NCBI GenBank assembly: GCA_049419605.1
Contig: JBMSKF010000005.1
Location: 58 to 64,057, forward strand
DNA from: Bacilli bacterium
GTDB taxonomy: Bacteria; Bacillota_I; Bacilli_A; RFN20; CAG-826
Reading direction: 5' to 3'
Length of the DNA: 64,000 nucleotides
Within the stretch, counting starts at the first letter, position 1, and every line of letters starts with the position of its first letter. The translations under genes were made by a program, and so were the position numbers. Below, piece after piece: positions 1 to 19,855 of the stretch. The notes beneath the pieces are model-generated. The model had not been told where the DNA came from. It saw nothing but the letters and a program-made list of their open reading frames with translations, and did not search any database.

Positions 1-557
1 GATATAATCAACTCTTTTCCTTGATAATGCGTGACTTGGTAGGTCATAAATTTAAGTTGACTTAATTCAACTTTCTTCGTGATCTTGTCTTGAAGAACTG
101 CTTCAGATTGAGGGCCTTGTAAGGCAAGTTGAAGAAGTTTGTTTGTCACCACTTCAATTTGAACATCATAATTACCTTTGTGTTGATTCATCCATTCAAG
201 ATCCACTTGAGCATTTATAGCATTAATGACAAGTAATATTTTTTTAGGGTTAAAAACATAGGCAATTAGGTCATCAATTGGATAACCTTGTTCATTACAC
301 ATTAAGGCGTAAATAGCTTTGTTTTCTGGTTGACCTTGAATTTCATTTGTCACTAAGGATTCAACAAATGGAATCGCATCTTTACCGGTGACCAATACAC
401 GGCCCATATGGGAAACATCAAAGACGCCTGCTGATTGACGAACAGCACGGTGTTCTGCAACCAAACCTTTATATTCCTGTGGCATGGTAAAGCCACCATA
501 AAAAACGATTTTAGCACCTAATTTTATGTGTTCTTCGTGGAGTGGTAGTTTCGCCAT
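1..557 (-). CDS. gcvT: Aminomethyltransferase (glycine cleavage T protein), N-terminal ~185 codons; the 3' end runs off the window
   Basis: Absent from the ORF track because there is no stop in the window. Reverse translation from ATG (557-555) gives MAKLPLHEEHIKLGAKIVFYGGFTMPQEYKGLVAEHRAVRQSAGVFDVSHMGRVLVTGKDA..., a typical GcvT N-terminus. A GAGGTG RBS lies just upstream. Confidence 0.85.
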   Translation of the reverse strand, partial: MAKLPLHEEHIKLGAKIVFYGGFTMPQEYKGLVAEHRAVRQSAGVFDVSHMGRVLVTGKDAIPFVESLVTNEIQGQPENKAIYALMCNEQGYPIDDLIAYVFNPKKILLVINAINAQVDLEWMNQHKGNYDVQIEVVTNKLLQLALQGPQSEAVLQDKITKKVELSQLKFMTYQVTHYQGKELII

Positions 558-633
558 ATTACACCTCTATTGGATTTCATTTTATCTTATGATTGCAATC
601 GAAGGTATAAGAAAATAATCGTGATAAAATAAG

Positions 634-1449: not shown

Positions 1450-4400
1450 ATGAAAACTTTTATTAGTGATCGTTATCAAAAACAAAAACCTTTTGCAGGC
1501 TTTTTACCTGGGATTGCTGGCAAAGAAGGACTTCCAATGTGGGTCTTTTATGTCAATCGTGGCCAGGCTATTAGTACCTTTGGTGTTCGAGATAAAAATG
1601 GAGCGATTGCAGAATTTTATCCAGCAAATCTAGCGTACGCTTATATTCATCAAAATGGATTTCGTACTTTCCTGAAATATAAAGGCGAAGTATATGAATG
1701 TTTTCAAGAAAAGAATGAACAACAAACTTTTACAGTAGATGCCCATGAAATCATCATTGAAGAAACCATCCAAAAATGGAATCTAAAGGTTAAAGTTACG
1801 TACGCAACTTTACCGAATATGCCACTTTCAGCCTTAATGCGAAAGGTTGATATTACTTCACTCGATGGAAAAGAAAAAAATTTAATTGTTATTGATGGAC
1901 TAGCGCAAATCCTACCCGCGGGCATTGATTATGGTGGTTATAAAGCGGTCAGTTATTTACTACAAAGTTGGATGGAAGTTCAAGAAAATGACAACCATGT
2001 CTTTTTAAAATTACGAGCGTCTACCGCAGACTCTAGTGAAGTCAAGGCTGTTGATGATGGAAATTTTTATACGTATATTGGTCTCAACCAAAAGCAATAT
2101 TTATACGATTACAAAGCGGTTTTTGCTCAAGATTCATCTTTTGTAACGCCTTATCAGTTGCAAACGCTTGATTATCAACAACTCATTAAACAAAAACAAG
2201 CCCCAGTTAATCAAGTGCCATCTGCCTTTGTAGTCAGTGAATTATCGGTCAAACAAACCACCACTTTTTATGGGGTCTTTGGTTACAGTCAAAGTCGATC
2301 CCAATTATCACCATTAGTTCAAAAAATGAACGCGACTTTTTTAGAAAATAAGTTTAAAGAAAATCAATTCGCTGTAGAAAACTTAACTTCAGAAATTAAG
2401 ACGCAAACATCAAAGCCAATGTTTGATTCCTACTTACAACAATGCTACTTGGATAATATTTTAAGAGGCGGTTATCCGATTCAATTTGAAACGCTAGATG
2501 GATCCATTGGTTATCATATTTATTCAAGAAAACATGGCGATTTAGAAAGAGATTATAATTTCTTTTCTCTAGAACCAAGTTATTTATCCCAAGGGAATGG
2601 TGCATTTAGAGATGTTCTACAAAATCGTAGAAACGATCTTTATTTTCATCCTGAAGTTGGCACGACGACAATTGCTCAATTTGCTTCTTTAATCCAAGCG
2701 GACGGATATAACCCCTTAAGTATAGAAGGGATTATGTTCACCTTTAAAGGTGATGCATCGAGTTACCCTGTGGCCATCCAAGATTTATTAAAGCAAGAAT
2801 TCACGCCTGGACAAGTTGCCAACTTAGCAGGGCAATTTCAATTGCCGGTCATGGAAACCGTAATCAAGATTATCAAACAATCTCATTATCACTTTAAAGC
2901 CACATTTGGTGAAGGTTATTGGGGTGATCATTTCACCTATTTTTTAGACTTAATTGAAACGTATTTAGATATTTATCCTGATCAAGTCGATTCATTATTT
3001 CAACAAAAACATCGCTATTTCTTGTCACCAGCCTTTGTTCAAAAGCGAGATGATAAATATATTTTAAAGAATGGAAAAGTTCGCCAATATCACGCAGTTC
3101 ATCATGACCATGGTGCGCCACAACGTGGATGGTTAAAACTCGCAAGTGGAGAAGAAGCCACCACTTCATTGTTTGGAAAGTTATTAACTTTAGTTTCAAA
3201 TAAGTTTGCGCAATTAGATCCTGAAGGTCTTGGTTTGATGTATGAAGCCGAAAGACCAGGTTGGAATGATGCGATGAATGGCGTACCTGGTTTATTTGGA
3301 TCAGGTGTTTCAGAAATGCTTGAGCTAAAACGTCTTGTTCAATTTTTACAACAACAAAAAATGACTGCCATAGAAGTGTTGGCTCCTTTAAATACCTTAA
3401 TCACTAGTTTATTAGCGGTCAAAGATGGTTCTTTATTTGATCAATGGTCAAAGAGGATGGATGCTTTAGAACGATATCGCGATCAACTAAAAGCCCCATT
3501 AACGACCACGACGATCAGTGCAGATTTAATTCAAAGCCTACTTACGCACATGGCGAAAACACTTCAAAGTTCAATGGAAAGATTATTAGCCATTCATCCT
3601 ATTCCTTACACCTATTTTATTTACGAAGTTGATCAGTATGATTTATTACCCAAAGCCAATGGCAACGCCATGCAAACTGTTCGTGCAAAATCTTTTAAAC
3701 GAGTCCCCTTGCCTCACTTCTTAGAAGCACCTGCTCGTATGCTTTCCAATGGATTTTTATCTCCAGAACAAGCGGCTAAGCTTTACCAAGCCATTCAACA
3801 ATCTCCTCTTTATGATGCCCCGTTAAAGATATATAAAACCAGTACGCCATTAGACCAACAATCCATGGAAATTGGACGTATTAGAGCATTTACACCAGGA
3901 TGGTTAGAACGTGAATCAGCATTTTTACACATGACGTATAAGTACATGCTTGGTTTATTGAAAGCAGAAGCATACCCATCTTTTTTTGAAGCGATGCAAC
4001 ATGGGTTAACTTGTTTTATGGATCCACAAATCTATGGCCGCTCACCTTTAGAAAACTCATCATTCATTGCCACGACCAATAATCCAGATAGTTCAAAACA
4101 TGGCCAAGGATTCTATGCTAGATTATCTGGTTCTACCGCAGAAGTTATCTCGATGTGGAAACGCCTATTATTAGGAAAAAAATTATTTTCACTAAAAAAT
4201 CATCAACTTCAATTTCACATTCAACCTATCATTCCTTTGGAATATTTCAAAGATGGGAAAATTGAAACCACATTGTTTGCCGATATTAAAATTCGTTTAA
4301 CCTTAACAGAACCTATAAAACCGACGGATAAAATTGTGTCAGTTTCTGGCTATCGATTATCTTACTTAAATCAAACTCAACCGATTGTCATCCAAGGTAC

Positions 4401-4482
4401 CACCATTGAAGGTGAACATGCCTTGGCGATTCGACAAAAACGTATACGAGAGATTGAAGTTTTATTAAAAGGAGGACAATAA
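1450..4482 (+). CDS. Large cytosolic glycoside phosphorylase-like protein (GH94/GH149/GH161-clan-like; candidate beta-1,3-glucan/laminarioligosaccharide phosphorylase)
   Basis: 1010 aa with no signal peptide. The ERPGWNDAMNG motif resembles the (D/G)WND general-acid motif of (alpha/alpha)6 phosphorylases. It is the first gene of an operon that also carries GH16 and GH30 genes. Confidence 0.5.
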   Translation: MKTFISDRYQKQKPFAGFLPGIAGKEGLPMWVFYVNRGQAISTFGVRDKNGAIAEFYPANLAYAYIHQNGFRTFLKYKGEVYECFQEKNEQQTFTVDAHEIIIEETIQKWNLKVKVTYATLPNMPLSALMRKVDITSLDGKEKNLIVIDGLAQILPAGIDYGGYKAVSYLLQSWMEVQENDNHVFLKLRASTADSSEVKAVDDGNFYTYIGLNQKQYLYDYKAVFAQDSSFVTPYQLQTLDYQQLIKQKQAPVNQVPSAFVVSELSVKQTTTFYGVFGYSQSRSQLSPLVQKMNATFLENKFKENQFAVENLTSEIKTQTSKPMFDSYLQQCYLDNILRGGYPIQFETLDGSIGYHIYSRKHGDLERDYNFFSLEPSYLSQGNGAFRDVLQNRRNDLYFHPEVGTTTIAQFASLIQADGYNPLSIEGIMFTFKGDASSYPVAIQDLLKQEFTPGQVANLAGQFQLPVMETVIKIIKQSHYHFKATFGEGYWGDHFTYFLDLIETYLDIYPDQVDSLFQQKHRYFLSPAFVQKRDDKYILKNGKVRQYHAVHHDHGAPQRGWLKLASGEEATTSLFGKLLTLVSNKFAQLDPEGLGLMYEAERPGWNDAMNGVPGLFGSGVSEMLELKRLVQFLQQQKMTAIEVLAPLNTLITSLLAVKDGSLFDQWSKRMDALERYRDQLKAPLTTTTISADLIQSLLTHMAKTLQSSMERLLAIHPIPYTYFIYEVDQYDLLPKANGNAMQTVRAKSFKRVPLPHFLEAPARMLSNGFLSPEQAAKLYQAIQQSPLYDAPLKIYKTSTPLDQQSMEIGRIRAFTPGWLERESAFLHMTYKYMLGLLKAEAYPSFFEAMQHGLTCFMDPQIYGRSPLENSSFIATTNNPDSSKHGQGFYARLSGSTAEVISMWKRLLLGKKLFSLKNHQLQFHIQPIIPLEYFKDGKIETTLFADIKIRLTLTEPIKPTDKIVSVSGYRLSYLNQTQPIVIQGTTIEGEHALAIRQKRIREIEVLLKGGQ

Positions 4483-4547
4483 CTAGCATCAACAATATAA
4501 GTAGGGAAAATTGTTCGCTATCTATCATCATGAAAGGAAATTTATTG

Positions 4548-7136
4548 ATGAAACATTATTGGAAAGGCCTATCCATTACGTTAGCAGCCCTCGTGTTAGC
4601 AGCGTGTGGAACCCCAAGTTCAAGTAGCCAAACGAGTTCCACAAGTACGAGTACTTTATCCTCGATTACGATTGCTGGAGCAAATGATGTTACCTTAGAA
4701 TTTGATGTCGATTTTAACTTTTTAACTGGCGTTACTGCTACTGGTAATAACGGCCAAGATTTTACATCGAGTATTACACTCTCTTCGATTTCTACCGCGG
4801 TTAATACTACAACGGGTGTTTTAGACACCACAAGAACTGGTGTTCATACCGTTCAATATCGTGTCCAATCTGGCACGATTGTTGCAACTAAATTTAGAAA
4901 TGTTACCGTTCAACAACCTCAATCCACAGGCGGTATGTTATTAAATCCAGACTTTGCTTTGGGTACTGCTGGTTGGACGGATCCAAGTGTTGTCTATAAC
5001 GAAAGTGGATCAAGTATTGACTTCGATATTGAAGATGGTGCATTAAAAGTAGTGGTTGTGGCAAGTCCTGTTGCCTATGCTCCACGCTTTGGACAAATGA
5101 ATGTACCCTTTGAAATCGACACCACATATGAAGTAAGCTTTAGAGCAAAATCCAGCGTAGTTAAACCCATTAACTTAAATGCTGGTGAATTATTATCCTC
5201 TGCTCCTTGGTTTGTTGACTTCAAACCTGGTCAACCAGAAATTAGAACGATTGGAACCGAATGGGCAACTTATTCCTATATCTTTACTCACCGTCTTGAT
5301 AACAAGCGTGGTGGTATTTTATTTGAATTAGGAACAGTCAGTGGTCAAAAAGTGGATGCCACGATGTACTTTGATGACATCACGATTGAAGAAGCAACTG
5401 CAGGTCCAGATGTGACCGCACCAAACTTCTCTGGTGTTTCTGCCACTGTCAGTGTTTTGGTGGGATCAACCTACGATCCATTAAATGGTGTCACCGCATT
5501 AGACATCGTTGATGGTGACTTAACGGATGAAATTTTAGTGGAAATTCTTGACAGCAATAACGCAGTCGTCAATGCCGTTGATACTTCTGTTCCTGCGGTG
5601 TACACAGTGAATTATTCTGTTGAAGACGCTGCAGGAAATGAAGCAACTGCCCAAACTATTGTCAATGTTGTAAGTTTAGTTTTCAAGAATGAAAACTTAT
5701 TGGCGAATGGTTCATTTGCAGAAGCGGTAGGAAATGAATGGAGTTTCTGGAGCCAAGATTGGGGTACAGCTCCTGTTGTGAATCGTTCGCAAAATGTTGA
5801 AGCTGGCACTTATACTTTAGACATCACCAATGGTGGTGATGCTGCTTGGGCGATTCAAATGAATCACGTCGGTGCTGAATTGGTTCAAGGTCAAACTTAC
5901 CGTTTATCATTCACAGGTTCCTCGACCGTTGCAAGAAAATTCTCAGCAGCGTTTGATACAGGGGCCCCAAACTATGATAACTATGCGCGTAAAAATGGAT
6001 TTGAATTAGGGACAACGAGTTCTACTGTTGATCACATTTTTACCGTAACCAAAGCTACTGGCATCATTCGTTTAACCATTGAATTTGGTTCACAAGATGG
6101 ATTTGCAAACGGTATCGTGACGTTATCTGAAGTTCGTTTACAACGATTAGATGCTTCTCCATTAATTAGTGATTCCAAATTTGCGATGTCTGGCTGGCGT
6201 CATTTCGTTAATGACTGGGATGGCACGGTTGCCACTTCCGGAATCGTCGCTGGCGAATATAAAATGACCATTACAAAGACTGTTGCCTTAAGTCCAACTG
6301 CAGATAATTGGAAATTACAAATTATCCAAGATAATGTTGCCTTCGGCGAAACTGTTGATGATGGTCGTATGAATTTAACAGCGGAAAAATCTTATACCTT
6401 AAGTTTTGACATGTATGCCTCACAAAACATTAATGTCACCACATTTATTGGTGCCCCTGGTGTTTGGGTTAACTATGTTCCAGAAGCAAACCGTGTCAAC
6501 GCAGTCACCACAAGTAAACAAACCATTACGATTCCTGTGAGTACGGTTGGGGCAACCTTAAATGGTAAGGAAAAAATTTCCTTTGAATTTGGTTCTTCCT
6601 TCTCGAACTTTGAATCCGGAAATGAATTTGTTGCGATTGATAATGTGGTCTTAAAAGAAGGTAACACCGTTTTACCAAACATCATTAACGGTGATATGAA
6701 CGCTATTTTAGGCGGACACACCTTCTTTACAGAAAATGGTGGTGCGATGACAAGAGGCGCCAATGGTGGTGCTTCTATTGAAGTTCCTGCTTTAGGCGGC
6801 GCTGCTTATCAACCTCATTATTACTATATTTTCCCAACGCTTGCCAAAGGTAAATATGAAGTGAAGATCGCATTAACCAGTTCGGTGACTCGTGATTTAC
6901 GCTTTAATATTATTCTTCCTGATGCGGGTTATGCTTCGATCCTTCCTGAAAACTTTGTTGATTTCCGCGTCACTGCAGATACCCCTTATGTCTTTACCGT
7001 TTCGTTCGAAGTGGTCAATCCATTAACGAATGTGAAACTTGAATTAGATCTAGGGACACTTGGTGGTGATAAGGTTTCCTTACCAGGAACTTTCTTAATT
7101 TCAGAAGTACTCGTCTACGCAAATTACAATAGCTAA
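4548..7136 (+). CDS. Surface lipoprotein with two Ig-like (DUF5011-type) modules and four CBM4/9/22-like beta-sandwich modules; glycan-binding protein
   Basis: Lipobox LAAC-GTPSSSS followed by a Ser/Thr linker. There are four roughly 155-aa repeats, each starting with a N(P/G)xF..GW-type motif and ending FDDITIEE / LSEVRLQ / IDNVVLKE / ISEVLVY. The DVTAP...DIVDGDLTD module is Ig-like. The ATG at 4548 has an AAAGGAAA RBS; the track start at 4530 does not. Confidence 0.65.
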   Translation: MKHYWKGLSITLAALVLAACGTPSSSSQTSSTSTSTLSSITIAGANDVTLEFDVDFNFLTGVTATGNNGQDFTSSITLSSISTAVNTTTGVLDTTRTGVHTVQYRVQSGTIVATKFRNVTVQQPQSTGGMLLNPDFALGTAGWTDPSVVYNESGSSIDFDIEDGALKVVVVASPVAYAPRFGQMNVPFEIDTTYEVSFRAKSSVVKPINLNAGELLSSAPWFVDFKPGQPEIRTIGTEWATYSYIFTHRLDNKRGGILFELGTVSGQKVDATMYFDDITIEEATAGPDVTAPNFSGVSATVSVLVGSTYDPLNGVTALDIVDGDLTDEILVEILDSNNAVVNAVDTSVPAVYTVNYSVEDAAGNEATAQTIVNVVSLVFKNENLLANGSFAEAVGNEWSFWSQDWGTAPVVNRSQNVEAGTYTLDITNGGDAAWAIQMNHVGAELVQGQTYRLSFTGSSTVARKFSAAFDTGAPNYDNYARKNGFELGTTSSTVDHIFTVTKATGIIRLTIEFGSQDGFANGIVTLSEVRLQRLDASPLISDSKFAMSGWRHFVNDWDGTVATSGIVAGEYKMTITKTVALSPTADNWKLQIIQDNVAFGETVDDGRMNLTAEKSYTLSFDMYASQNINVTTFIGAPGVWVNYVPEANRVNAVTTSKQTITIPVSTVGATLNGKEKISFEFGSSFSNFESGNEFVAIDNVVLKEGNTVLPNIINGDMNAILGGHTFFTENGGAMTRGANGGASIEVPALGGAAYQPHYYYIFPTLAKGKYEVKIALTSSVTRDLRFNIILPDAGYASILPENFVDFRVTADTPYVFTVSFEVVNPLTNVKLELDLGTLGGDKVSLPGTFLISEVLVYANYNS

Positions 7137-7151: not shown

Positions 7152-8612
7152 GTGAAACATAAAGCTAAACTATCCGTTGTAGCCTTGTTTGTCCTTGCTG
7201 GATGTGGGGGAACCCCATCCAGTAGTGGCAACACTACAACGAGTGAAACGTTACAACCTGTAACGTTGTCTTATGCAGATTGGGGTAATCAAGAACTCAA
7301 TCAACGCATGATTGATTTATTTGAAGCAAAGTATCCGCATATTACGGTCGAACTTCGACAAGATATTGTGGGTGCAGGTTCACAATTTACAGGCAACCTC
7401 GTCACTGCCGCTCAAGCTGGATTACTCCCTGACGTTTTTGCAACCGATAACGTCCCTACCGTTATCAATGCTGGTTTAACGTTGGATGTGGCTCAGTACT
7501 GGGATGCTGATGAAGATGCTCAGTTAGTCTATGACAATATTGCGCTTGCCGGAGTTTATAACGGCAAACGTTATGCCGTTCCGTCATTCCAATTCTTAAA
7601 AGGGATTTTAATTAATCTCAATATTTTTGAACGCGCCAACTTGCAAACCGTTCCAGGAAAGTATCGTATTGATAATGATGGGTATCCTGTAAAGGATTGG
7701 ACATTTGAAGAATTTGTGAATATTGCAAAAGACATTAAAAACTTTGATTTAGTGAATACCGAAAATTTAGTTGTTGGGATGGACACGTGGTATGGATCAC
7801 CTGATTTCCAACAAGTGTGGCCAATGATGCAAAATGCTGAAACCCAATACGATACATGGGATGGTGAACAATTTCATTACACCTCCGCAGATTGGATCAG
7901 TGCGATGCAAGCTAAAGTTGCCCTTCATCAATTAACCGATGGCACGACCACACGTTTTACACCAGAAGATTATGATGCCGAAGATAATGACGAATTAAGA
8001 ACGTATATGATTCAAACCGGTTATGCGGCGATGGACATTGAAGGTTCTTGGCAATTCTGGGTCATTAAAGATGCAATCGATAATCGTGATTTTGAATTAG
8101 GTTTCTGGCCTTATCCACAAGGTGATGCTGGATTATTCCCTCCTACCATTTTAGATTTCCAAGCCGTTTCATCTCAAACTGAGCATCCAGAAGAAGCTTA
8201 CTTACTAGCCAAATGGATGACATTTGGTCAAGATGGCTGGAATGCTCGTTTATCATTATTAGAAGAAGATCGTGAAGAAGCAATCGCGGAAGGGTTAACG
8301 CCTGATTTCTTAGACCGTTTCCCAATTGCGGATTATCCTGATGTTTGGACACGAGTCGAAGGCCTTGTAGAAGGAATTGAAGGGATCGATGCAATTTTTG
8401 ATCGTATTCAATATTCAAAACCAGACTTAGACAAATGGTTACCAGGTTATAAAGATTTCTGGGCATGGGTATACACGCCTGAAAATCCATTTAACTTTGA
8501 TAACTTAGTCGCCGAAGGACCCAATGCAGTGCCAACTTATGCAGCCGCATGGGAAGCACAAATTAATATGCTCGTAGCAGAACAACTTGCTGCCTTAGGT
8601 GCAAGTCAATAA
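7152..8612 (+). CDS. CUT1-type ABC sugar substrate-binding lipoprotein
   Basis: GTG start 9 nt after an AAGGAGG RBS. Lipobox LAGC-GGTPSSSG. At 486 aa it matches the size and composition of family-1 extracellular solute-binding proteins. Confidence 0.8.
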   Translation: MKHKAKLSVVALFVLAGCGGTPSSSGNTTTSETLQPVTLSYADWGNQELNQRMIDLFEAKYPHITVELRQDIVGAGSQFTGNLVTAAQAGLLPDVFATDNVPTVINAGLTLDVAQYWDADEDAQLVYDNIALAGVYNGKRYAVPSFQFLKGILINLNIFERANLQTVPGKYRIDNDGYPVKDWTFEEFVNIAKDIKNFDLVNTENLVVGMDTWYGSPDFQQVWPMMQNAETQYDTWDGEQFHYTSADWISAMQAKVALHQLTDGTTTRFTPEDYDAEDNDELRTYMIQTGYAAMDIEGSWQFWVIKDAIDNRDFELGFWPYPQGDAGLFPPTILDFQAVSSQTEHPEEAYLLAKWMTFGQDGWNARLSLLEEDREEAIAEGLTPDFLDRFPIADYPDVWTRVEGLVEGIEGIDAIFDRIQYSKPDLDKWLPGYKDFWAWVYTPENPFNFDNLVAEGPNAVPTYAAAWEAQINMLVAEQLAALGASQ

Positions 8613-8620
8613 TCACCACA

Positions 8621-8646
8621 GGGAGATTTCCTCACGGAAATCTCCC
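8621..8646 (+). promoter_or_regulatory. Perfect 11-bp intra-operon hairpin immediately after the SBP gene (attenuator or mRNA 3'-end stabiliser)
   Basis: GGGAGATTTCC-tcac-GGAAATCTCCC. The downstream sequence ttgattcg is only weakly T-rich. This is the only strong secondary structure within the 22-kb operon. Confidence 0.6.
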
Positions 8647-8658
8647 TTGATTCGATGC

Positions 8659-11600
8659 ATGAAAAAAACAAAATTAAACCTCCCTACATTGTTTACAAAA
8701 CAAACTGGCATTTGGCTAGTTATTTTGTTTATGGGTCTTACCGGTTTTGTTTTTTTGATGGATCAGTCACCCGCACCGTTGAATGAAAATTTTAACACCT
8801 ACCCTTTTATCCAACCCTCATTTGATTATGCTTATCAAACACAAGTTTATGGCATTCCAACTTATACTGCGAAACAAAATTTCTATCGAGAAGCAGGGGT
8901 TCCTCAAACGGGTTATGAGTCAAGTTACTTTGGAGATTCTCTCCAAGGAACTCCCATTGGAATTCTTGATGCAAACCATGGCAACATCGTAGAAAATTAT
9001 ACGGATGGAGATGAAGTATTTTTATTGGATCAAAGCGAAACCCTCTCTTTTGTTTATGACGGACAAGAGAGTGGAATTATCTCCTTAGCCTTAGATTATT
9101 ACTTACTTGATCAAGGCACTGAAGACACTAAAATTGCTTTAACCATTAATAATGAGTTTCAATTTTATGAATCGCAAACGTTGGTGCTTCCCGCTTCATG
9201 GATGTTTGCAGAAGATACCTTTCCTTTAGATCGTTATGAAAATGAATTACAACCTCAATCTATCAAAGTTAATGCATGGTCAAATCATGTATTAAGAGAT
9301 ATGAAAGCGATGCATGCTTATCCCTATCAATTTTATGTTGAATATGGTGATGAAATTACCCTCCAATTTGTTAATGCAAAGGTTTTAGTAGGCAAGATTC
9401 AAGTTGTGACAAGCGAACCTCTCATTGACTATGCAACTTACCGTGAAGGAAGTCCTCATGCACCCGTGATCGATACTCTATCCATGATTTCTAGTCGGTC
9501 GATGGTGTCGCGAACCGATGCCTCGATTCGTTTAAGAACCGAGCAAGATGCGAGTAGTATGTATTACGATACTCAATTCTTAAAACTCAATACGATTTTT
9601 GGTGATAGCTGGGAACGTGGTGGGCAAACCATTTCCTATGAAGTTGATATCGAAACCAGTGGATATTATGCTTTGTCTTTCCGTTACCGCCAATACTTAC
9701 AAAATGACATGGTGACGATGAGAAGTGTCTATATCAATGGAGAAGTCCCATTCCAAGAATTTTTAGCGATGGCGTTTCCTTATACGATGCAATTTAGAAA
9801 CCGGACCTTAGCCCAAGACAATGGGGATCCTTACTATGTTTATTTAGAAGAAGGCATCAATACAATCAGCCTTGAAGCGGTTAATTATGCCTATCGCTTT
9901 GCCTTAGAAACCCTGCAAACCATCATGTCTCAAATTCAACAACTCGCACTCTCTATCAAACGATATACAGCAGGGAGTAATGATTTATACCGTGATTGGG
10001 AAATCGAAACGTATTTTCCTCAAGCAAAAAATCAAATGCTTGGTTGGGCTGATCAACTCGATGCCATGTATACACATTTATTAAATTTATCCATTAATCG
10101 TAATCCTTCTCAACTTGCCAATGTCAAAGTGAGTAGTGCAAGATTAAGAACTTTTGCGAATCAAATTAATCGCTTACCAGGATTAATGGTGCAATTTGCC
10201 GATGGTGATTCTAGTGTCAATCAAATGCTGGGCGCATTGCTACAAGAAATGATGCGATCTTCTTTAGAAATCGAACGTATCATGATTCATGGTGATGTTA
10301 GTTTGCCACGATCCACTGCCACCTTCTTCCGTAGTGCTTACGAAGGCAGCGCTCGATTGGTTCTTTCTTTTATTAATAATCCATATTCAGCAACACAAAT
10401 GGATGAAGAACAAATTAACGTTTGGGTTAACTTCCCAAGACCCTATATCGAAATCATGCAGGCGATGATTGATCAATTTTATCCCGGTGACCGCGAAGTC
10501 AAACTTTCGCAAATGCCTGATGAAAATAAATTAATTCTTTCTAATATCTCTGGTCAATCTCCAGATGTTGCGGTCGGTGTAAATCACTGGATTCCTTATG
10601 ATTTTGCTGCACGTGATGCCGCGATGGATTTAAGACAGTTTGATGGGTATACCGAAACGGTTTCTCAATTTTCTAAAGGGGCAATGATCCCTTACGTCTT
10701 TGAAGAAGGGGTGTATGGTTTACCTTTAACGCAAAATTTCTGGGTCACATTTTATCGTCGCGACATTATGGAATCGATTGGTGTCAATACCATTCCTCAA
10801 ACATGGGATGAAATTATTGGTATTTTACCTTTATTACAAAGTTATGGGCTAAATTACTTCTTACCCCTTTCGCAATTTTCAGGTTTAAAACCATTTGTTG
10901 CAACATTACCCTTTATCCATCAATTTGGTGGACAACTTTATGCAGAAGACGGCATGAGTACGACAATCAATGAAGAAAATACTTTAAAAGGGATCACCTT
11001 AATGGCGGAACTTTTTACCCTCTATAATATCCCCAAATTCGTCGCAAGTTTTTATAATCAATTCCGATATGGAACGTTGCCGATTGGCATTGGAGATTTA
11101 GGAACGTATTTACTATTATCAAGTGCTGCAAGTGAATTAGACGGATTATGGGCAATGGATTTACATCCCGGATATCAAGACCCCGTGACTCAAGAGATCA
11201 ATCGTTCGAGCGCGACTGGTGCTCAAGGGTCGATGATTTTGGCAAATACCAATATTCCTGAAGATAGTTGGGATTTCTTGTCTTGGTGGATGTCGACACC
11301 TATTCAAACTTTATTTGGTTCCACGCTTCAAAGTACCTATGGCAAAACCTATTTCTGGAACTCTGCTAACTTAGAGGCTTTTGCTGAATCAAGTATGCCT
11401 GAAGAATATAAGTCAGTTGTTTTAGCGCAATGGGAATATGCTTTAGAAGCTAGTCGGATTCCTGGCACTTATATGGTGGAACGAGAATTATCCAATGCTT
11501 GGACCAATATTGTCTTTCAAGGAATCAATCCACGCCAAGCGATTGATGAAGCAGTGAGAATTTCTAATCGGGAAATTATTTATAAGATGGCCGAATTCGG

Positions 11601-11685
11601 TTACACCTTCCAAGGTGAAATTTTACGACCGTATCCTGTGCCGACGATTGATAATATAGATTGGTGGTTGACTCAACATGCTTAA
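8659..11685 (+). CDS. TM-anchored giant extracellular protein: N-terminal TM, CBM-like beta-sandwich regions, a helical region and a C-terminal family-1 solute-binding-protein domain
   Basis: The ATG at 8659 ([12 protein letters not shown]...) lies after the hairpin. TM segment [22 protein letters not shown]6/35-like pattern is present ([12 protein letters not shown]...VYINGE...INTISLEA). From about nt 10411 the protein becomes SBP-like ([22 protein letters not shown]...PDVAVGV...). The stop overlaps the next permease start by 8 nt. Confidence 0.6.
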
Positions 11686-12574
11686 TCGATTATTAGATCG
11701 GATGAATCGCCCTGCTTGGTTTATTTTCCCTTATTGGTTTTTGTTTGCAGTCTTCATTGTGGTACCTGTTGTCGCTGCAATTGGATTATCCTTCACGTTC
11801 TTTAATTCCATACAAACTCCAACCTTTATTGGCATTACAAACTATATTGAATTAATTACTTTAGACACTGTCTTTATGCGATACGTATTACCCAACACCT
11901 TGCGTTTTGCATTTATTGTGGGACCAGTTGGGTATGCATTGTCCTTTATGGTTGCATGGATGTTATCCCACTTACCGAAAAGACCAAGAACGATTTTAGC
12001 AATCATCTTTTATTCACCTTCTTTAACTGCAGGGGTTGCTATGGCAGCGATGTGGCGCATTATCTTTTCTGGAGATGCTCAAGGTTACTTGAATGCGATT
12101 ATGTTGGATTTAGGTTTGATTGTAGAACCGATTCAATTTTTACAAAATCCTGATATGCTCATGACCATTATGATTGTGGTGTCATTATGGAGTTCCATCG
12201 GGGTTGGTTTCTTAGCCATGCTTGCCGGGATTTTAAACGTTGATCGTACACTATATGAAGCGGCTTATATTGATGGCATCAAAAATTGGTTCCAAGAAAT
12301 TATTTATGTCACCATCCCAGCGATGAAGCCACAAATGATTTTTGGTGCAGTCATGGCTGTCGTGGGTACTTTCCAAGCAGGTGCAATTGGTGTTGCTTTG
12401 TCGGGAACCAATCCTACGCCAAATTATGCCGGTCAATTGATTGTAAATCACATTGAAGACTTTGGTTTCATTCGTTACATGATGGGTTACGCGGCGAGTA
12501 TTTCCGTCATTCTATTGTTGATGGTGTATGCGATTTCTAAGGTAACGTGGAAGTTTTTAGGAGAAAAAGATTAA
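11678..12574 (+). CDS. ABC sugar transporter permease (MalF/LplB-type)
   Basis: 298 aa with six predicted TM segments. An EAA-like loop is present ([27 protein letters not shown]). Confidence 0.85.
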
Positions 12575-13452
12575 TGGCCTCAAAATTTTTAGGAACACAA
12601 ATTAATCCGGACCGTTTCCATAAAGGACAACTTCCTTTTTTCATTATTCTCATTTCATTTTCTGTCTTGATGATCTTACCGATTTTATTTATCATCAATC
12701 ACGCCTTTAAACCACAGTCAGAACTCTTTGCCTATCCTCCTGCATTTTTTGTAAAAAATCCAACCCTTGATAACTTTATTGAACTCGCTAGACTTGTTTC
12801 AACATCAGGCGTTCCTTTTTCTCGTTATGTTTTAAATAGTTTGTTCATCACGGGTATCGGCGTTGGCTTGGCAATTTTATTTACCGCTTTATCCGCTTAT
12901 GGTTTAGCCAAATTGCATTTTAAAGGAAAGAAATTATTATTTGAAATCAATACGATTTCTTTAATGTTTGTGCCAATCGCGGTGCAAATTCCTCGTTATA
13001 TTGTGGTGGCCCAATCAGGAATGATTGATACCTATTTCGCTCATATTTTCCCGCTAATTACCATGCCTGTCGCTATGTTTTTAATCAAACAATTCATCGA
13101 TCAAATTCCTAATGATTTTATTGAAGCCGCGCGTATTGATGGGGCTAGTGAGATGCAAATATTCTTTAAAGTCATCATGCCGATGATTGCTCCAGCAGTT
13201 GCCACTGTTGGTATTCTTGCTTTCCAATTAATTTGGAATGATACCTCCACTTCAACCTTATTTATTAATGACGAAAGTTTAAGAACGTTAGCATTTTTCT
13301 TACAAACTTTAACTTCAGGAGTTGGTAATACCATTGCTGGACAAGGAATGGCGGCTGCGGCATCGTTATTAATGTTTATTCCTAATTTAGTCTTGTTTGT
13401 CATCTTACAAAGTCAAGTGATGTCCACGATGGCGCACTCGGGGTTGAAGTAA
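12574..13452 (+). CDS. ABC sugar transporter permease (MalG/LplC-type)
   Basis: EAA loop FIEAARIDGASEMQIFFKVIMPMIAP. The ATG at 12574 is preceded by GGAGAAAAAG; the track's GVG-type extension from 12547 overlaps the upstream gene. Confidence 0.85.
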   Translation: MASKFLGTQINPDRFHKGQLPFFIILISFSVLMILPILFIINHAFKPQSELFAYPPAFFVKNPTLDNFIELARLVSTSGVPFSRYVLNSLFITGIGVGLAILFTALSAYGLAKLHFKGKKLLFEINTISLMFVPIAVQIPRYIVVAQSGMIDTYFAHIFPLITMPVAMFLIKQFIDQIPNDFIEAARIDGASEMQIFFKVIMPMIAPAVATVGILAFQLIWNDTSTSTLFINDESLRTLAFFLQTLTSGVGNTIAGQGMAAAASLLMFIPNLVLFVILQSQVMSTMAHSGLK

Positions 13453-13453
13453 T

Positions 13454-15496
13454 ATGAAACGCTGGTTATATCTAGTTCTTTTTGCAAACTTAGGTTTGTT
13501 ATTACCGCAAAGAACGGTAGTACCCACGCTTGCAGATAATGGATTGCCCTATCAAACTTACACTTATGCAAGTTCACGGCAACAACTTATCCAAACCCAA
13601 GATGCATATTTACCGTTATCTCTTGCAACGCAACTTGGTGATTTCACCCTATCATCACCCCAAGATGTTTACGTGGATTCACAAGATATTATCTATGTTG
13701 CTGATAAAGGTAGAAAATCCATCATCAAATATAATTTGCAAAATGATGAAGCGATTGAAATTGGTTTAGGTATACTCAACGAACCAACAGGTGTCCATGT
13801 TGATGAATTAGGTTCGATTTATGTGGCAGACTTTGCCAATAAAAAAGCTTATCAGTTCATCAATGATGACGGGGAATATAGGGTACAAACCGAGTATCAA
13901 AAACCTCTTAATTCACCTTTCTTTGGTGAAGAAGATCCCTTTGATCCTACCAAAGTTGTCACCGATCGAGGCGGCAACGTCTATGTTTTACTTGCCGGTA
14001 ACGTGAACGGTCTTGCTCAGTTTAAAAATAATGGTGAATTCTTTGGTTATTTCGGTGGCAATCGAATTCCAGCCACAATTGCAAACACCATTCGTTCGCT
14101 ATTGTTTGATGAAGAAACAAGACGTAACTTTTTCCAAATCATTCCTAAGCCTGTTTATAACCTTAGTATTGATCAAAGTGGTTTAATTTTAACCTCTACC
14201 AAAGACCAAGATGGATACTTAAAACTCAACATTGCTAACGTCATCTATAATCAATCGGTTTGGGGTTTTAATACAGTTGAAGATATTGCGGTTGGTCCGT
14301 ATAACACGATTTATACGTTAACCTCTGAAGGTTATATCGTTGAGTATGATCCTAATGGTTCCGTGCTATTTTTATTTTCAGGTCCGGACGCCATTGGGCA
14401 AAAAGGATTATTTAAACGAGCCAAAGGGATCGCGATTGATTCCCGAAATAATTTATATGCAGTTGATGAAGCAACTGGCGCACTCCAAATTTTTATTCCA
14501 ACCGAATTTGCAAATTTAGTTCATGATGCTATCGATTTATACTTTGATGGAAAATATGCCGAATCTTTGGTCCCTTGGCAAAACGTCTTAAAAATGAATC
14601 GGCTTTTTGACCTTGCAAATCAAGGATTGGGTGACGCTTATTTTGCTTTACAAGATTATGAATCTGCCTTAACTTACTATCGATTAGCGAGAGATACTAG
14701 AGGTTATTCCAATGCTTACTGGGAAGTTCGAAACCAATTCCTGTTAGTCAATGGCAATGCTTTCGTCGTTTTCTTAATGATACTTATCGCTTTCTATGTG
14801 GTTCGCAAATTCATTCCTGGCTATGTTTGGGTGCAAACGCAAATCCATAATTTAAAACAAAAAACCACGCTTCCTAATTGGATTAAAGAACTCCAATTTC
14901 CTTTCCAAGTGTTTGCCAAACCGGTTGATGGATATGATGATATCAAACGTCATCAAACCTTTAGCAACCGCAGTGCGCTTATTTATTTAATCGCATTCTT
15001 TGTCGCGTATTTAATTTGGATATACGAAACCAACTTTTTATTTAACGGTTTAATCTCTTCTGAAATTAATATAGTTGAACAAGTGATTGGTGTCTTTGTT
15101 CCATTTGGTTTGTGGGTTGTTAGTAACTACTTAGTTTGTTCCATACGAGATGGCGATGGTAAATTATCGGAAGTATTTCAAGCATCAGCCTTAACATTAT
15201 TGCCAATGATTATCACCTTCCCAATTCTGACGATCATTTCGCATGGGTTAACGGCAAATGAAAGCTTTATTTATGATTTGATATATGGCATTGGTGTGAG
15301 CTTTACCGTGATATATATGTTTATCATGGTGAAAGAAATTCATTTCTATGACATCAAACCGACGTTTAAAAACATTCTCATCACGATCTTTACTGCCATT
15401 ATGTTACTTGCTTTAACCTTAATTATTGTCTTCTTGCTTGGAGAAGTTTATCAATTGATCGCCGATATCATTCAGGAGGTGAATAGCCGTGTTTAA
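13454..15496 (+). CDS. Fusion membrane protein: signal peptide, NHL-like beta-propeller, TPR-like helices, then a polytopic Yip1-like domain
   Basis: Repeated blades occur at aa ~60-350: IYVADKGRKSIIKY, IYVADFANKKAYQF, VYVLLAGNVNGLAQF, LYAVDEATGALQIF. A TPR-like stretch GDAYFALQDYESALTYYRLA follows. A TM sits at aa ~428-450, then five more TM segments in a Yip1-like region (FQVFAKPVDGYDDIKRH...). Confidence 0.6.
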   Translation: MKRWLYLVLFANLGLLLPQRTVVPTLADNGLPYQTYTYASSRQQLIQTQDAYLPLSLATQLGDFTLSSPQDVYVDSQDIIYVADKGRKSIIKYNLQNDEAIEIGLGILNEPTGVHVDELGSIYVADFANKKAYQFINDDGEYRVQTEYQKPLNSPFFGEEDPFDPTKVVTDRGGNVYVLLAGNVNGLAQFKNNGEFFGYFGGNRIPATIANTIRSLLFDEETRRNFFQIIPKPVYNLSIDQSGLILTSTKDQDGYLKLNIANVIYNQSVWGFNTVEDIAVGPYNTIYTLTSEGYIVEYDPNGSVLFLFSGPDAIGQKGLFKRAKGIAIDSRNNLYAVDEATGALQIFIPTEFANLVHDAIDLYFDGKYAESLVPWQNVLKMNRLFDLANQGLGDAYFALQDYESALTYYRLARDTRGYSNAYWEVRNQFLLVNGNAFVVFLMILIAFYVVRKFIPGYVWVQTQIHNLKQKTTLPNWIKELQFPFQVFAKPVDGYDDIKRHQTFSNRSALIYLIAFFVAYLIWIYETNFLFNGLISSEINIVEQVIGVFVPFGLWVVSNYLVCSIRDGDGKLSEVFQASALTLLPMIITFPILTIISHGLTANESFIYDLIYGIGVSFTVIYMFIMVKEIHFYDIKPTFKNILITIFTAIMLLALTLIIVFLLGEVYQLIADIIQEVNSRV

Positions 15497-17855
15497 ACTT
15501 TCACGATTCATCATTCCGATGATTGTATTACCCGTATTAATTGTGACAACCCAAGAGGATCCAACATTAATGGTTGCTCCTCGTGTTGATAATTTTGCTT
15601 TTATTGAAAACCAATTATTGAGTAGTTCAAGATACACGCAAGTAGATGAACAAAATGCGGCTGTTTTAAACCGTTTCGAAGATGACTTTCACTTACAATA
15701 TAGCGAAGAACAACTTGATATTCTTGGTTATGAGTTAATGTTAGAAAATAACAACCTTAATCTTTATTTTGAAAAAGATTCTTTTTCATTGTTGCTTGAG
15801 GATAAGGCAACTGGTTATATGTTATCTTCGCGTCCAGAATTCCAAGGGTATTCTGAAACCAGAGAAGATAACACAGCGAATCGTAATCAAATGAATTCAG
15901 GTTTATGGATTGAATCAATCCGAACCAATAATATTAGTAGCAGTGCAATTAAAGTAGAATCGTTGTACACCATTGCAGATGTAAGTTATCAAACGAATGG
16001 TTCGCAGGATTTAACCAACATTGATTGGACAAGACCTTATTTAATTGAGGCGAATAGTTATCAACGTAGTCGAGTACAAGTCACCACTTCATCTATTAAT
16101 GAAACAAGTTTTAAATCCACGATTCAGATTACAAACTATGGTTTTAGTTTTGACATCACCATTGGCTTAGAATCGAATGGATTTTCTGTTCGTTTTAATC
16201 CAACAACTATCCAAGAAAATAATGATCAATATCGCTTACTTGGATTACAATTTTTCCCATATTTTGGTTCTGCTCGTGAGGATATTTATCCCGGTTATGT
16301 TGTCATTCCAGATGGCGTTGGTGCATTAGTCAGAACCAATCAACGTTTTGATAAAACCTATCAATCTGATTATTATGGTTCAGATTTAGGTTATCTAAGA
16401 AACTCGGTTGCCTCGTTATCCCTTCCTATTTATGGCATGATTCATCAAGTCAATCGTATTGGTTTTTATCATGACATAGTTGAGGGTGCAGAACATGCAA
16501 CCTTATTAGCGAATTTCTGGGGTAGAAACACTCGTTATCATCGCATCACAAATCGATATAACGTTCGACGTATTTATCGAAATATCATTAATCGTGCTGG
16601 TGATGGTCAAGATGTTATTCCTACAGAAATGATTACGCAACCTTATGAAGGGGTTTACCGTATTTTAAAAGAAGACCAAGCTAATTACGTTGGCGTGGCA
16701 AAATCTTATCAAAATGAATTAGCAACTCGGCAAGCTATTCAAGCATTAGAAAACACAGAAACACCGATTCAACTTGCCATGCTAATTCACGAACAAGAAC
16801 CTACTTTTTTTGGCACATCACGATTAACCATGACTTCAATGGATGATGTTCAACGCATGCGAGATGAACTCAATGAACAAGGTATTGATGAGCAGCTTAT
16901 CGTCTTAAAAGGATGGTCTGGCGATGGGTATGCTTACCGCCAACCATACTATTTTAATTTACCCGATCGTCAAGGATTATTAGATGTGATTGCAGACGTC
17001 AACGAAGATGGCCAGCATCTATTCCTTGAACAGGACTATCTTGTGAGTAGTGAACTTTCTCGCCGAGTTGAATTTAATCGCGATGTCGCACGAAATTACT
17101 CTAAATTAAAAATGAGTTATCGTCTCAATCGCTTGGATAATCAACCGATTAATGAGTATTATCTTTACCCAACCATCGCTCAAGAAAAACTAGCAAATGA
17201 TATCGCAGTGATAGATGACTTAGGGGCAAGCGGATTTGCATTCCCTCATCTTGGTCAAACCTTATTTAGCTATTATGATGATCAACGAATCAACCGTTCT
17301 GAAACTTTACAAATTGTGACCGATATGGCTGCATCATTAAACCGCTCAGCGATGAATCGGCCATCTGCCTACATGTTCCCGTATGTCAGTCATTATTTAG
17401 AAATGCCAATCACAAATAGTCAGCTGGATTTATTTACTGACTTAGTGCCACTTGTTCCTTATGTGTTAAAAGGGTATGTGCCCACCTTCACACCTTATTT
17501 AAACTTTAATGCTTTAGGAAAAGAACGACTACTCCAAATGATTGATTTTGCAGTGAATCCAAGTTATTTATTAACCGATCAACCAAGTAGCGCGCTTCGT
17601 TATACTTATAGCAATAAATACTTCACCACCGCTTATAGTGATTTCAAAGATGACATCCAAGATGTGTATCAATATATTGCAACTGCATTAAATCCGGTGT
17701 TGGGAACTACGGTCGCTGAACGAACGATGGTACAAACCGGGGTTAGTCGCATTGTCTATGATAATGGCGTCACCTTATATATTAATTACCGTTCTACACC
17801 TGTTACCGTTGATCAACTGACGATTGCGGCATTAGACTATGAGGTTGTGTTATGA
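15489..17855 (+). CDS. N-terminally TM-anchored 788-aa extracytoplasmic protein, DUF5696-like (function unknown; possible glycoside-hydrolase-like fold)
   Basis: GTG start 7 nt after an AGGAGGTG RBS, overlapping the upstream stop by 8 nt. It has a single N-terminal TM (FIIPMIVLPVLIVTT). Motifs GYVVIPDGVGALV and LKGWSGDGY are present. I recognise no named catalytic signature. Confidence 0.4.
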   Translation: MFKLSRFIIPMIVLPVLIVTTQEDPTLMVAPRVDNFAFIENQLLSSSRYTQVDEQNAAVLNRFEDDFHLQYSEEQLDILGYELMLENNNLNLYFEKDSFSLLLEDKATGYMLSSRPEFQGYSETREDNTANRNQMNSGLWIESIRTNNISSSAIKVESLYTIADVSYQTNGSQDLTNIDWTRPYLIEANSYQRSRVQVTTSSINETSFKSTIQITNYGFSFDITIGLESNGFSVRFNPTTIQENNDQYRLLGLQFFPYFGSAREDIYPGYVVIPDGVGALVRTNQRFDKTYQSDYYGSDLGYLRNSVASLSLPIYGMIHQVNRIGFYHDIVEGAEHATLLANFWGRNTRYHRITNRYNVRRIYRNIINRAGDGQDVIPTEMITQPYEGVYRILKEDQANYVGVAKSYQNELATRQAIQALENTETPIQLAMLIHEQEPTFFGTSRLTMTSMDDVQRMRDELNEQGIDEQLIVLKGWSGDGYAYRQPYYFNLPDRQGLLDVIADVNEDGQHLFLEQDYLVSSELSRRVEFNRDVARNYSKLKMSYRLNRLDNQPINEYYLYPTIAQEKLANDIAVIDDLGASGFAFPHLGQTLFSYYDDQRINRSETLQIVTDMAASLNRSAMNRPSAYMFPYVSHYLEMPITNSQLDLFTDLVPLVPYVLKGYVPTFTPYLNFNALGKERLLQMIDFAVNPSYLLTDQPSSALRYTYSNKYFTTAYSDFKDDIQDVYQYIATALNPVLGTTVAERTMVQTGVSRIVYDNGVTLYINYRSTPVTVDQLTIAALDYEVVL

Positions 17856-18919
17856 AGACAAAAAGACCTTCTATTTTTAAACAATTCTTAACGCGTCTTT
17901 TGAATTTGATGGAATCAATGAGTCAATTTTACCAAGCTAAGATTCAACCTCCCTTAGACCGTTTTGTTTATCGCTTAAAACATAATTTTATTTATCGAGA
18001 AATCGGTAATACAGTGAAAATATTTTCCTTAATCACCATTCGTATTACAAGAAAACGTCGGCATGCATTTTATGGCTATCTATTTATTTTGATATGGTTA
18101 ATTGGGATTGCGATTTTTACCTTATATCCCTTAGGATATTCATTTTATTTAAGTTTTCATGAAGCCTATTACAACTTACAAGAAGGCGTTATTACCACAT
18201 TCATCGGCTTCACGAATTATGTCAACATATTCAGAAGTCAAACCCTTGTGCCTGCTTATAGCAATTATTTAGGAAGAATGGTGGTTGCGGTTCCCATCAT
18301 CATTGTCTTTTCAATCATCATTGCCGTCCTCGTCAATATGCCAATCAAGACCAAAAGTTTGTGGCGAACTGTTTTCTTTTTACCGGTGATTATTTCAACG
18401 GGTCCTGTCATCAATGAATTGAATGCTCAAAGTGCGATTACTTTACCCAATTTACAGGCGAGCGGAATCTATAGTTATATCGTCAATAATTTACCAAGCT
18501 TTTTAGCAGATCCTTTAACCACTGTCATTAATTCCATGCTTTTAATCCTATGGTATGCAGGGATTCCTATCCTCATTTATTTAGCAGGATTACAAAAAAT
18601 TGATCCGAGTTTATATGAAGCCGCCAGTATGGATGGCGCCTCACCTTGGATGCGTTTTTGGAAAATTACCTTACCATCATTAATGCCGTTTACCGGTATT
18701 TCCATTGTCTATGTTGTGGTATCGATGTCCTTATTTGTTGAACCAGGTGGCATATTAGATTTAACAAGGACCCACATGTTAGTGGGGGCTCCTGATTCTG
18801 CATTCTGGTTTGGATATGGATATGCAGCAGCGATGGCGTGGGTATATTTCATTTGTATGGTCTTATTGATTCTAGTTTTTACAAGTCTTACCCGAGAAAA
18901 AAGAGGTAAAGTAAAATGA
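17852..18919 (+). CDS. ABC sugar transporter permease with a long N-terminal extension (LplB-like)
   Basis: ATGA start/stop overlap with the upstream gene. EAA loop LYEAASMDGASPWMRFWKITLPSLMP. 355 aa. Confidence 0.85.
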   Translation: MKTKRPSIFKQFLTRLLNLMESMSQFYQAKIQPPLDRFVYRLKHNFIYREIGNTVKIFSLITIRITRKRRHAFYGYLFILIWLIGIAIFTLYPLGYSFYLSFHEAYYNLQEGVITTFIGFTNYVNIFRSQTLVPAYSNYLGRMVVAVPIIIVFSIIIAVLVNMPIKTKSLWRTVFFLPVIISTGPVINELNAQSAITLPNLQASGIYSYIVNNLPSFLADPLTTVINSMLLILWYAGIPILIYLAGLQKIDPSLYEAASMDGASPWMRFWKITLPSLMPFTGISIVYVVVSMSLFVEPGGILDLTRTHMLVGAPDSAFWFGYGYAAAMAWVYFICMVLLILVFTSLTREKRGKVK

Positions 18920-19854
18920 AACTTTCCTCACTCATTTCAGTCTCCCAACAACAAAAAATGAAAAAAGTTTGGTTAGGAAAAACCTTAACTGATGGTTTGC
19001 TATACAAGGTTGTGATTTATTTATTGTTGATTAGTTTTAGTTATATTTATTTATATCCTCTGTTATTTATGTTGATCAACAGTTTAAAATCTGTTGATGA
19101 TTTGATTAATCCTGGTGTGCAATGGATTCCCACCGTCTTAAAGTGGGAAAACTATGAACGCGCCTTTCAAGTTTTAAGTTTGCCAAACTCGTTGATTGAT
19201 TCAACCGTCTATGTTTTAAAGGTCAGTGTCAGTGCGACTTTATCGAGTGCTTTAATTGGTTATGGTTTTGCTCGATTTGATTTCCCTTTTAAACGCTTAT
19301 TCTTTGCAATTATGTTAGCGACCTTTATTCTCCCTCAACAAGTGACCATGGTTGCGAATATGCTTATCTTTAGAGAATTAGAAATCATTTCAACTGAATG
19401 GGCGATGCTGTTACCAGCGATGACAGGGCAAGGTATCAATGCTGCAATTTACATTTTGATTTTTTACACATTCTATCGAACGATTCCAGGCATCCTCATT
19501 GAATCTGCAGAAGTGGATGGGGCTGGTCAATTAAGAATTTTCCGAACCATCATCCTGCCTTTAGCGATACCTTCTTTTGTCATCGTTTTCTTATTTAGTT
19601 TTGTTTGGTATTGGAATGAATCCTTTATTACCGGCTTATATGTAGGTGATAAGGTGACCTTGCCTTTATGGTTACAAGCTTTTAGAGCTTCGTATGAAAC
19701 AATTTTCCCACCTGGTACACCCGGAGCAGAACTAAATGAAGCCATTTTACTTTCAGGAAATATGTTGACGATATTACCTTTACTTTTACTGTATTTCTTT
19801 GGTCAAAAATTATTTACGCAAAGTATCGATAAAACGGGAATCACTGGAGAATAG
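18916..19854 (+). CDS. ABC sugar transporter permease (LplC-like)
   Basis: ATGA overlap with the upstream gene. EAA loop ESAEVDGAGQLRIFRTIILPLAIP. 312 aa. Confidence 0.85.
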   Translation: MKLSSLISVSQQQKMKKVWLGKTLTDGLLYKVVIYLLLISFSYIYLYPLLFMLINSLKSVDDLINPGVQWIPTVLKWENYERAFQVLSLPNSLIDSTVYVLKVSVSATLSSALIGYGFARFDFPFKRLFFAIMLATFILPQQVTMVANMLIFRELEIISTEWAMLLPAMTGQGINAAIYILIFYTFYRTIPGILIESAEVDGAGQLRIFRTIILPLAIPSFVIVFLFSFVWYWNESFITGLYVGDKVTLPLWLQAFRASYETIFPPGTPGAELNEAILLSGNMLTILPLLLLYFFGQKLFTQSIDKTGITGE

Positions 19855-19855
19855 T

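Follow-up and report, generated by a model that had tools for sequence, protein, structure and literature searches.

The stretch analyzed here (hereafter the window) comprises 64,000 nucleotides of contig JBMSKF010000005.1 from a Bacilli bacterium (GenBank assembly GCA_049419605.1) and encodes a 1008-residue protein, P0001, in which structural models place a complete solute-binding domain behind a membrane anchor and some 550 residues of additional folded protein. Receptors of ATP-binding cassette (ABC) sugar importers are, by textbook standards, solute-binding proteins (SBPs) of 400-500 aa. The explanation we favor, to which we would give about an even chance of being correct, is that P0001 (the big SBP) is the tethered receptor of an importer formed with the permease pair PermA/PermB, made at permease level, with an SBP domain that carries oligosaccharides and an N-terminal platform that is not a classical carbohydrate-binding module (CBM). 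In the models, the order of domains is anchor, jelly roll 1, jelly roll 2 (CBM35-like), helical bundle, and complete SBP, and these parts fall in the window as follows.

8659..11685, forward strand: P0001, the big SBP gene, an open reading frame of 1008 aa plus stop.
8701..8763, forward strand: N-terminal hydrophobic segment and predicted signal anchor, residues ~15-35 (the sole Kyte-Doolittle peak, following a Lys-rich N-terminus).
8911..9408, forward strand: predicted beta-jelly-roll domain 1, residues ~85-250 (AlphaFold2 [AF2] N-terminal model with a predicted local distance difference test [pLDDT] of ~90; Foldseek matches 4xup and 5x7o).
9466..9882, forward strand: predicted beta-jelly-roll domain 2, CBM35-like, residues ~270-408 (profile match to the CITase insert; Foldseek matches 2w1w, 2vzp, 2w47, 2cdo, and 2cdp).
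9886..10374, forward strand: predicted helical bundle and connector, residues ~410-572 (both models).
10411..11682, forward strand: complete family-1 (CUT1, MalE-like) solute-binding domain, residues 585-1008 (phmmer and Foldseek).

Both sequence and fold searches identify the C-terminal domain. With phmmer, residues 580-965 of P0001 match the PDB entries 5ysb (3.9e-11), 9xf5 (8e-11), and also 5ci5, and Foldseek aligns the C-terminal part with 9xfu (3e-11) and 5ysf over 420-440 columns, which is end to end for SBPs of ~390 aa, at template modeling (TM) scores of ~0.6 when normalized by target. A type-II periplasmic binding fold, with two alpha/beta lobes and a hinge, is present in the predicted structure, and in a full-length AF2 model built from 40 homologues the alpha/beta domain begins at residue 585. 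Residues 580-1008 are matched best, in sequence as in fold, by Lin1841 (LiSO-BP, 5YSB-5YSF) and the Tepidibacillus cycloisomaltooligosaccharide SBP (9XF5/9XFU), both CUT1 oligosaccharide receptors of monoderm bacteria. These are stand-alone lipoproteins of ~400 aa, 18-19% identical to the P0001 domain, and, unlike P0001, they have no N-terminal CBM-like or helical module. When P0001 was compared with Pfam and NCBIfam, there was no match at E ≤ 0.01; all 10 of the 10 distant relatives pass the Pfam profile SBP_bac_1 (50-94 bits vs. a cut-off of 26), and distant relatives also exceed the threshold for SBP_bac_8.

The N-terminal half was modeled separately (residues 36-582 only, using 32 sequences translated from related loci), giving a pLDDT of 88.6 and a predicted TM score of 0.86, a value that indicates that the helical bundle packs rigidly on the sandwiches. 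The full-length model has strands at residues 60-250 and 274-408 and helices across 410-572, and helices 410-438, 456-477, 484-501, 507-532, and 556-572 are seen in both models. In Foldseek, two structures, 4xup (tandem CBM22) and 5x7o (CBM35-bearing), align with the N-terminal model over ~360 columns; the model's CBM35 neighbors are 2w1w (TM 0.70, root-mean-square deviation [rmsd] 3.0), 2vzp, and 2w47, its CBM6 neighbors 2cdo, 2cdp, and 8j3x, and further CBM35-bearing enzymes among its matches include, besides 5x7o, 4qaw and 3wnk/5x7g. The jelly-roll fold that P0001 has in common with CBM35 and CBM6 modules (2W1W, the CITase insert 5X7G/3WNK, and 2CDO) corresponds to TM scores of 0.6-0.7 and an rmsd of 3-4 Å, and the G-x-Y-x-[LI] strand pattern is likewise common to both. 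Here, however, such modules are joined to the receptor of a transporter and not to an enzyme, and they are recognizable by fold only: no CBM family hidden Markov model (HMM) scored above threshold in P0001 or in 10 distant relatives, among which the best CBM result was CBM_35 at E 0.078 (13.7 bits vs. a cut-off of 28) and Golvesin_C was also sub-threshold. The CITase structure 5x7g was matched in its CBM35 insert by an N-half profile (A3), at E 0.008 only.

Foldseek also relates the N-terminal model to BcsB, the periplasmic subunit of cellulose synthase (7L2Z; E 1.3e-5 over ~500 columns). BcsB, an accessory subunit that has a membrane anchor and CBM-like domains, guides a glucan chain at a translocon in the membrane; the resemblance is at the level of fold only, and BcsB differs in serving an exporter, in having a C-terminal anchor, and in lacking an SBP domain.

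Several N-half positions are strongly conserved. Jelly roll 1 contains a conserved loop, D191-x-x-G/E-N195, together with W181 and W207, and in jelly roll 2 N311, Y337, and G399 are invariant across 64 distant relatives. The lineage of the window differs at other conserved positions of this half (Y141I, G194E, P302Y, and H401N, each given as family consensus, position, and lineage residue), and at residues 279-280 the A-E of the family EAE motif is replaced by S-R, giving SSR. These lineage-specific residues (window ~9079-9861) are conserved among the close relatives of P0001. EAE is the start motif of CBM35 and CBM6 modules, and it is kept in the wider big-SBP family and absent from P0001.

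The N-terminus of P0001 (MKKTKLNL...) appears native. An in-frame GTG upstream, at 8599, would give a longer frame, but the ATG at 8659 is favored because homologues of 1005-1011 aa match P0001 across 100% of its length from that ATG. Residues 8-35 form a helix in the AF2 model. The protein has no Cys and therefore no lipobox, and it cannot be a lipoprotein; from its sequence it is predicted to be tethered by the one N-terminal helix with the remainder extracellular. Most members of the family likewise have a signal peptide or an anchor and not a lipobox, as would suit a protein that its partners keep at the membrane.

The first-pass annotation of this DNA had anticipated much of this architecture. 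It described a single N-terminal hydrophobic segment, which we place at residues ~15-35 of the Cys-free protein; ~550 aa of CBM6/35-like sandwiches followed by a helical segment, which the AF2 model and Foldseek bear out; an SBP-like domain from nt 10411, which corresponds to residue 585, the first SBP strand of the model; and an ordinary SBP lipoprotein immediately upstream, found at 7152-8612 with 486 aa and the lipobox LAGC. It had also named in advance two points on which it might be refuted, namely the beta-sandwich or CBM fold of the N-terminal part and the type-II binding-protein fold of the C-terminal part, and both folds were found by Foldseek, the first with 2w1w at TM 0.70. Its suggestion of a polysaccharide-sensing role has not stood. 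That P0001 is an extracellular sensor signaling the presence of polysaccharide to a regulator is extremely improbable: SBP-like sensors exist in other systems, but the cytoplasmic part of P0001 is only ~14 residues long and contains no signaling domain, the regulator encoded at the end of the operon is a cytoplasmic LacI-type protein, and the gene shows tight synteny with permeases, not kinases. We therefore rejected P0001 as a signaling sensor.

The case for P0001 as a transporter subunit draws on its genomic context, a cassette that occupies 7152-19854 of the window and in which successive genes from the big SBP to PermD overlap or abut.

7152..8612, forward strand: small SBP lipoprotein, 486 aa, lipobox LAGC (PDB match 22hh, 26% identity).
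8621..8646, forward strand: perfect 11-bp hairpin between the small and big SBP genes (read from sequence).
11678..13452, forward strand: permease pair A/B (Pfam BPD_transp_1; NCBIfam UgpA/UgpE-like).
13454..17855, forward strand: NHL-TPR-Yip1 membrane protein and anchored DUF5696 protein (Pfam).
17852..19854, forward strand: permease pair C/D, which probably works with the small SBP (Pfam; gene order at locus L093; residual correlations).

The MalF/MalG-type pair PermA/PermB lies directly 3' of the big SBP, the stop of which is overlapped by the start of PermA by 8 nt, and the same is true of all related loci; NHL-Yip1 and DUF5696 accompany the big SBP in all loci examined. A sequence search with the DUF5696 neighbor against the PDB gave no match. 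We compared 80 loci from Acholeplasmatales and Izemoplasmatales, and in the complete ones the order is small SBP, big SBP, PermA, PermB, NHL-Yip1, DUF5696, PermC, PermD, and a family 16 glycoside hydrolase (GH16). This gene order is the same in 42 complete loci, plus L081, L083-L085, and L093-L096. The last eight are distant loci, picked from relatives at 27-40% identity; in 8 of 8 the block from the big SBP to PermD is kept, and the flanking enzymes vary, as the following particulars indicate.

L081, Paenibacillus sp. OV219: GH16 and GH2.
L083, metagenome contig: ADP-ribosylglycohydrolase-family genes.
L084 and L095, metagenome contigs: PF10091.
L085, metagenome contig: GH38; NHL and Yip1 are separate adjacent genes (9438-11522).
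L093, metagenome contig: the small SBP gene stands after PermD, beside PermC/D (21794-23090).
L094, metagenome contig: a TOBE_2 ABC ATPase gene directly upstream of the big SBP (3773-4897); NHL and Yip1 are separate (9677-11748).
L096, Chloroflexus sp.: GH94.

The hairpin between the two SBP genes is also a persistent feature. Among the equivalent spacers of L001-L084, 71 of 73 loci, Paenibacillus included, have a GC-rich hairpin at the same position, just past the stop of the small SBP gene, with a stem of at least 8 consecutive bp, although the sequences differ, and the mean minimum free energy is -22.4 vs. -9.3 for shuffled sequences. There is no T-run after the hairpin in the window. The hairpin probably stabilizes the mRNA 3' end or acts as a partial terminator, thereby setting the amount of small SBP relative to the downstream operon. 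Because it is conserved and the downstream genes overlap or abut, we infer that the small SBP would be made in excess and the big SBP at the level of the membrane subunits.

Mean p-distances over 43 cassettes separate the components further. Judged by sequence, PermA (0.19) and PermB (0.24) are the most conserved genes of the cassette, followed by the big-SBP C domain (0.26), PermD (0.29), the small SBP (0.34), PermC (0.37), NHL-Yip1 (0.39), the helical part of the big SBP (0.41), its N half (0.51), and DUF5696 (0.53). With the common trend removed, residual correlations of the big-SBP C domain are +0.21 with PermA and -0.53 with PermD, and those of the small SBP are +0.20 with PermD and -0.55 with PermA, a pattern consistent with gene adjacency and with the position of the small SBP at L093. 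The ratio of nonsynonymous to synonymous substitution (dN/dS), calculated with dS saturated, rises from ~0.02 in the SBP domain to ~0.05 in the helical part and ~0.07 in the N half; by this measure all three are under purifying selection.

Taken in this context, P0001 would be the membrane-tethered receptor of one CUT1-type ABC importer, the first of two in the cassette, and would act through the adjacent PermA/PermB. Its SBP domain would dock on this pair and deliver a gluco-oligosaccharide, and P0001 would be made at permease level, without the surplus usual for a free SBP. The N-terminal module would more likely serve as a fixed platform for placing the binding domain, and it may contact the NHL-Yip1 and DUF5696 ectoproteins or guide a long glycan chain, whereas the variable small SBP and PermC/PermD would form a second importer that defines substrate specificity.

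A different role for the SBP domain must be weighed in light of its conservation. In comparisons with distant cassettes, identity is 45-66% for PermA, 29-50% for the big-SBP C domain, at most 35% for the small SBP, and 19-28% for the N half. The SBP domain is thus far more conserved than the small SBP beside different GH families, and its Trp, Arg, and Gln residues are invariant family-wide, as might be expected if it bound no sugar and served, with NHL-Yip1 and DUF5696, as a permanent structural or gating subunit on PermA/PermB; the apparent coupling of its expression to the permeases also fits. The finding that most ligand residues of Lin1841 are conserved neither in Chy400_4166 nor in Chy400_4167, Chloroflexus counterparts considered below (PMC13731917), points the same way. 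Against this, both lobes of the fold are present in full and can be aligned along their entire length with SBPs that bind ligands, and conservation of a ligand would account for a dN/dS of 0.02 equally well. We know of no catalytically dead ABC importer SBP of this kind, and we regard such a pseudo-receptor as quite unlikely.

The cassette in the window sits in a beta-1,3-glucan (laminarin) locus. Enzyme regions at 19799-23047 and 1450-4482 encode GH16a, GH16b, GH30, and a GH149-like protein; GH16a, with the probable start MKKIWPL... and the lipobox VTSC, is a surface enzyme, and GH16b, GH30, and the GH149-like protein are without a signal peptide. The presence of an endo-acting GH16 inside the cell suggests import of fairly long laminari-oligosaccharides. 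The same operon encodes a CBM4_9 lipoprotein (4530-7136), and a gene for an MsmK-type ATPase lies elsewhere in the genome.

A link to experimental work is provided by the small SBP, whose best PDB match is 22hh-22hl (E 4e-21, 26% identity). A Chloroflexus sp. protein shares 98% identity with the aligned part of the 22hh chain, and the locus of this protein comprises GH94, a 486-aa SBP, a 946-aa SBP, two permeases, NHL-Yip1, DUF5696, and two permeases. Over 890 aa, this 946-aa SBP has 35% identity to P0001, and the same set of six genes comes after it. This order fits the numbering Chy400_4165-4173 (PMC13731917), so that Chy400_4167 is a probable member of the P0001 family, an assignment that rests on synteny and numbering in a close relative and not on the strain's own sequence. 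PDB 22hh-22hl is very probably Chy400_4166, a cyclic beta-1,2-glucan binder; W54-N55 of the 22hh chain fits the paper's W74/N75 with an offset of 20.

In C. aurantiacus Y-400-fl, Chy400_4167 was treated as a putative SBP of the beta-1,2-glucan cluster Chy400_4165-4178, and its extra 550 residues were not described (PMC13731917). Its locus is directed at beta-1,2-glucan (GH94, GH144), whereas that of P0001 is directed at beta-1,3-glucan. The small SBP of that cluster, Chy400_4166, binds cyclic beta-1,2-glucans with a degree of polymerization (DP) of 17-20, as well as long linear chains in endo mode (PMC13731917). With soluble polysaccharides, laminarin and beta-1,2-glucan among them, Chy400_4167 did not shift in gels (data not shown in PMC13731917). 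The gel-shift assay cannot detect small ligands, and cyclic glucans left Chy400_4166 unshifted in the gel too, probably through their small DP (PMC13731917).

These results bear on the first-pass proposal that P0001 couples polymer binding to oligosaccharide capture, in which CBM-like modules would bind laminarin at the surface and pass cleavage products to the fused SBP domain. The CBM35/CBM6 fold of the N half and its weak profile match to the CITase CBM35 insert are what such a role would predict, the N half changes at twice the rate of the SBP domain, which could be expected of a part that faces the substrate, and the surface GH16 lipoprotein of the locus would release oligosaccharides nearby. 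The proposal has nevertheless found no support so far, and we consider it somewhat unlikely. The probable orthologue did not shift with polysaccharides (PMC13731917), and the CBM HMMs stay below threshold. Residues W181, D191, N195, W207, N311, Y337, and G399 are unchanged beside GH16, PF10091, GH38, and GH94, that is, whatever the neighboring GH family; this lineage has lost the family-wide EAE motif; and the dedicated CBM4_9 lipoprotein of the operon already fits polymer capture. The negative gel shift, the constancy of these residues, the lost motif, and the separate lipoprotein all argue that the N-terminal module is not a classical CBM.

Several observations weigh against P0001 as the oligosaccharide-carrying receptor of PermA/PermB. 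P0001 itself falls below every Pfam SBP threshold, and the pLDDT of the full-length model is 30-50 over residues 693-856; because of this low confidence in the SBP part, an intact ligand cleft can be read from the model only tentatively. The pairing with PermA/PermB rests on adjacency together with mirror-tree residuals that are weak because the pairs are non-independent. With respect to binding, docking, and transport, the sole experiment on any family member is the one negative gel shift. Finally, the predicted CBM35 fold of the N half leaves room for genuine glycan binding.

A broader version of the tethered-receptor explanation can also be considered, in which the cassette would serve bacteria with a single membrane as a dedicated import machine for very large glycans, functionally comparable to SusCD. 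The big SBP would then be a fixed hand-over subunit, with its platform holding DUF5696 and the NHL propeller over PermA/PermB and threading or metering a long chain between the two importers. We hold this to be unlikely.

The family to which P0001 belongs is large. More than 500 homologues were recovered, and the full-length ones (~1000-1030 aa) align over essentially their whole length; an exhaustive search of 1.84 billion representative proteins gave 2301 matches, 979 of them at E < 1e-30, nearly all of which are 900-1050 aa long and aligned from about residue 110 to the end. On this sequence evidence, about 980 clusters at 50% identity have the full-length architecture (E < 1e-30). Two half-size representatives, P0159 and P0268, were considered as halves encoded by separate genes and rejected, being frameshifted copies on short contigs and not natural splits. 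Members were verified in Acholeplasmatales/Izemoplasmatales, Paenibacillus, and Chloroflexus. Within the phylum of the window, 52 of 301 sampled genomes carry the big-SBP gene, often in at least two copies, and the 20 other genomes listed for the family of the window, which span 14 other genera, all lack it; the patchy distribution of the cassette reflects either loss or lateral acquisition. The genome of the window, at 1.0 Mb, contains a second, paralogous cassette on another contig (contig C23, 1-7663) that is cut by both contig ends and includes a big-SBP C-terminus 44% identical to P0001, two permeases, proteins of 667 and 760 aa, and the start of the next permease. Two cassette copies would occupy ~2% of this genome. 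A full-text literature search returned no publication describing this combination of CBM-like and SBP domains, and one paper treats a probable family member, as a putative SBP only (PMC13731917).

What emerges is a family of ~1000-aa receptors with a conserved extra module of 550 residues, represented by ~1000 clusters at 50% identity, in which the big SBP is always accompanied by two further surface proteins, likewise unstudied, and by a second importer. Culturable carriers include Paenibacillus sp. OV219, Haploplasma modicum ATCC 29102, Peloplasma aerotolerans, and Chloroflexus aurantiacus. A function for this architecture would give meaning to thousands of genes that are annotated only as "extracellular solute-binding protein."

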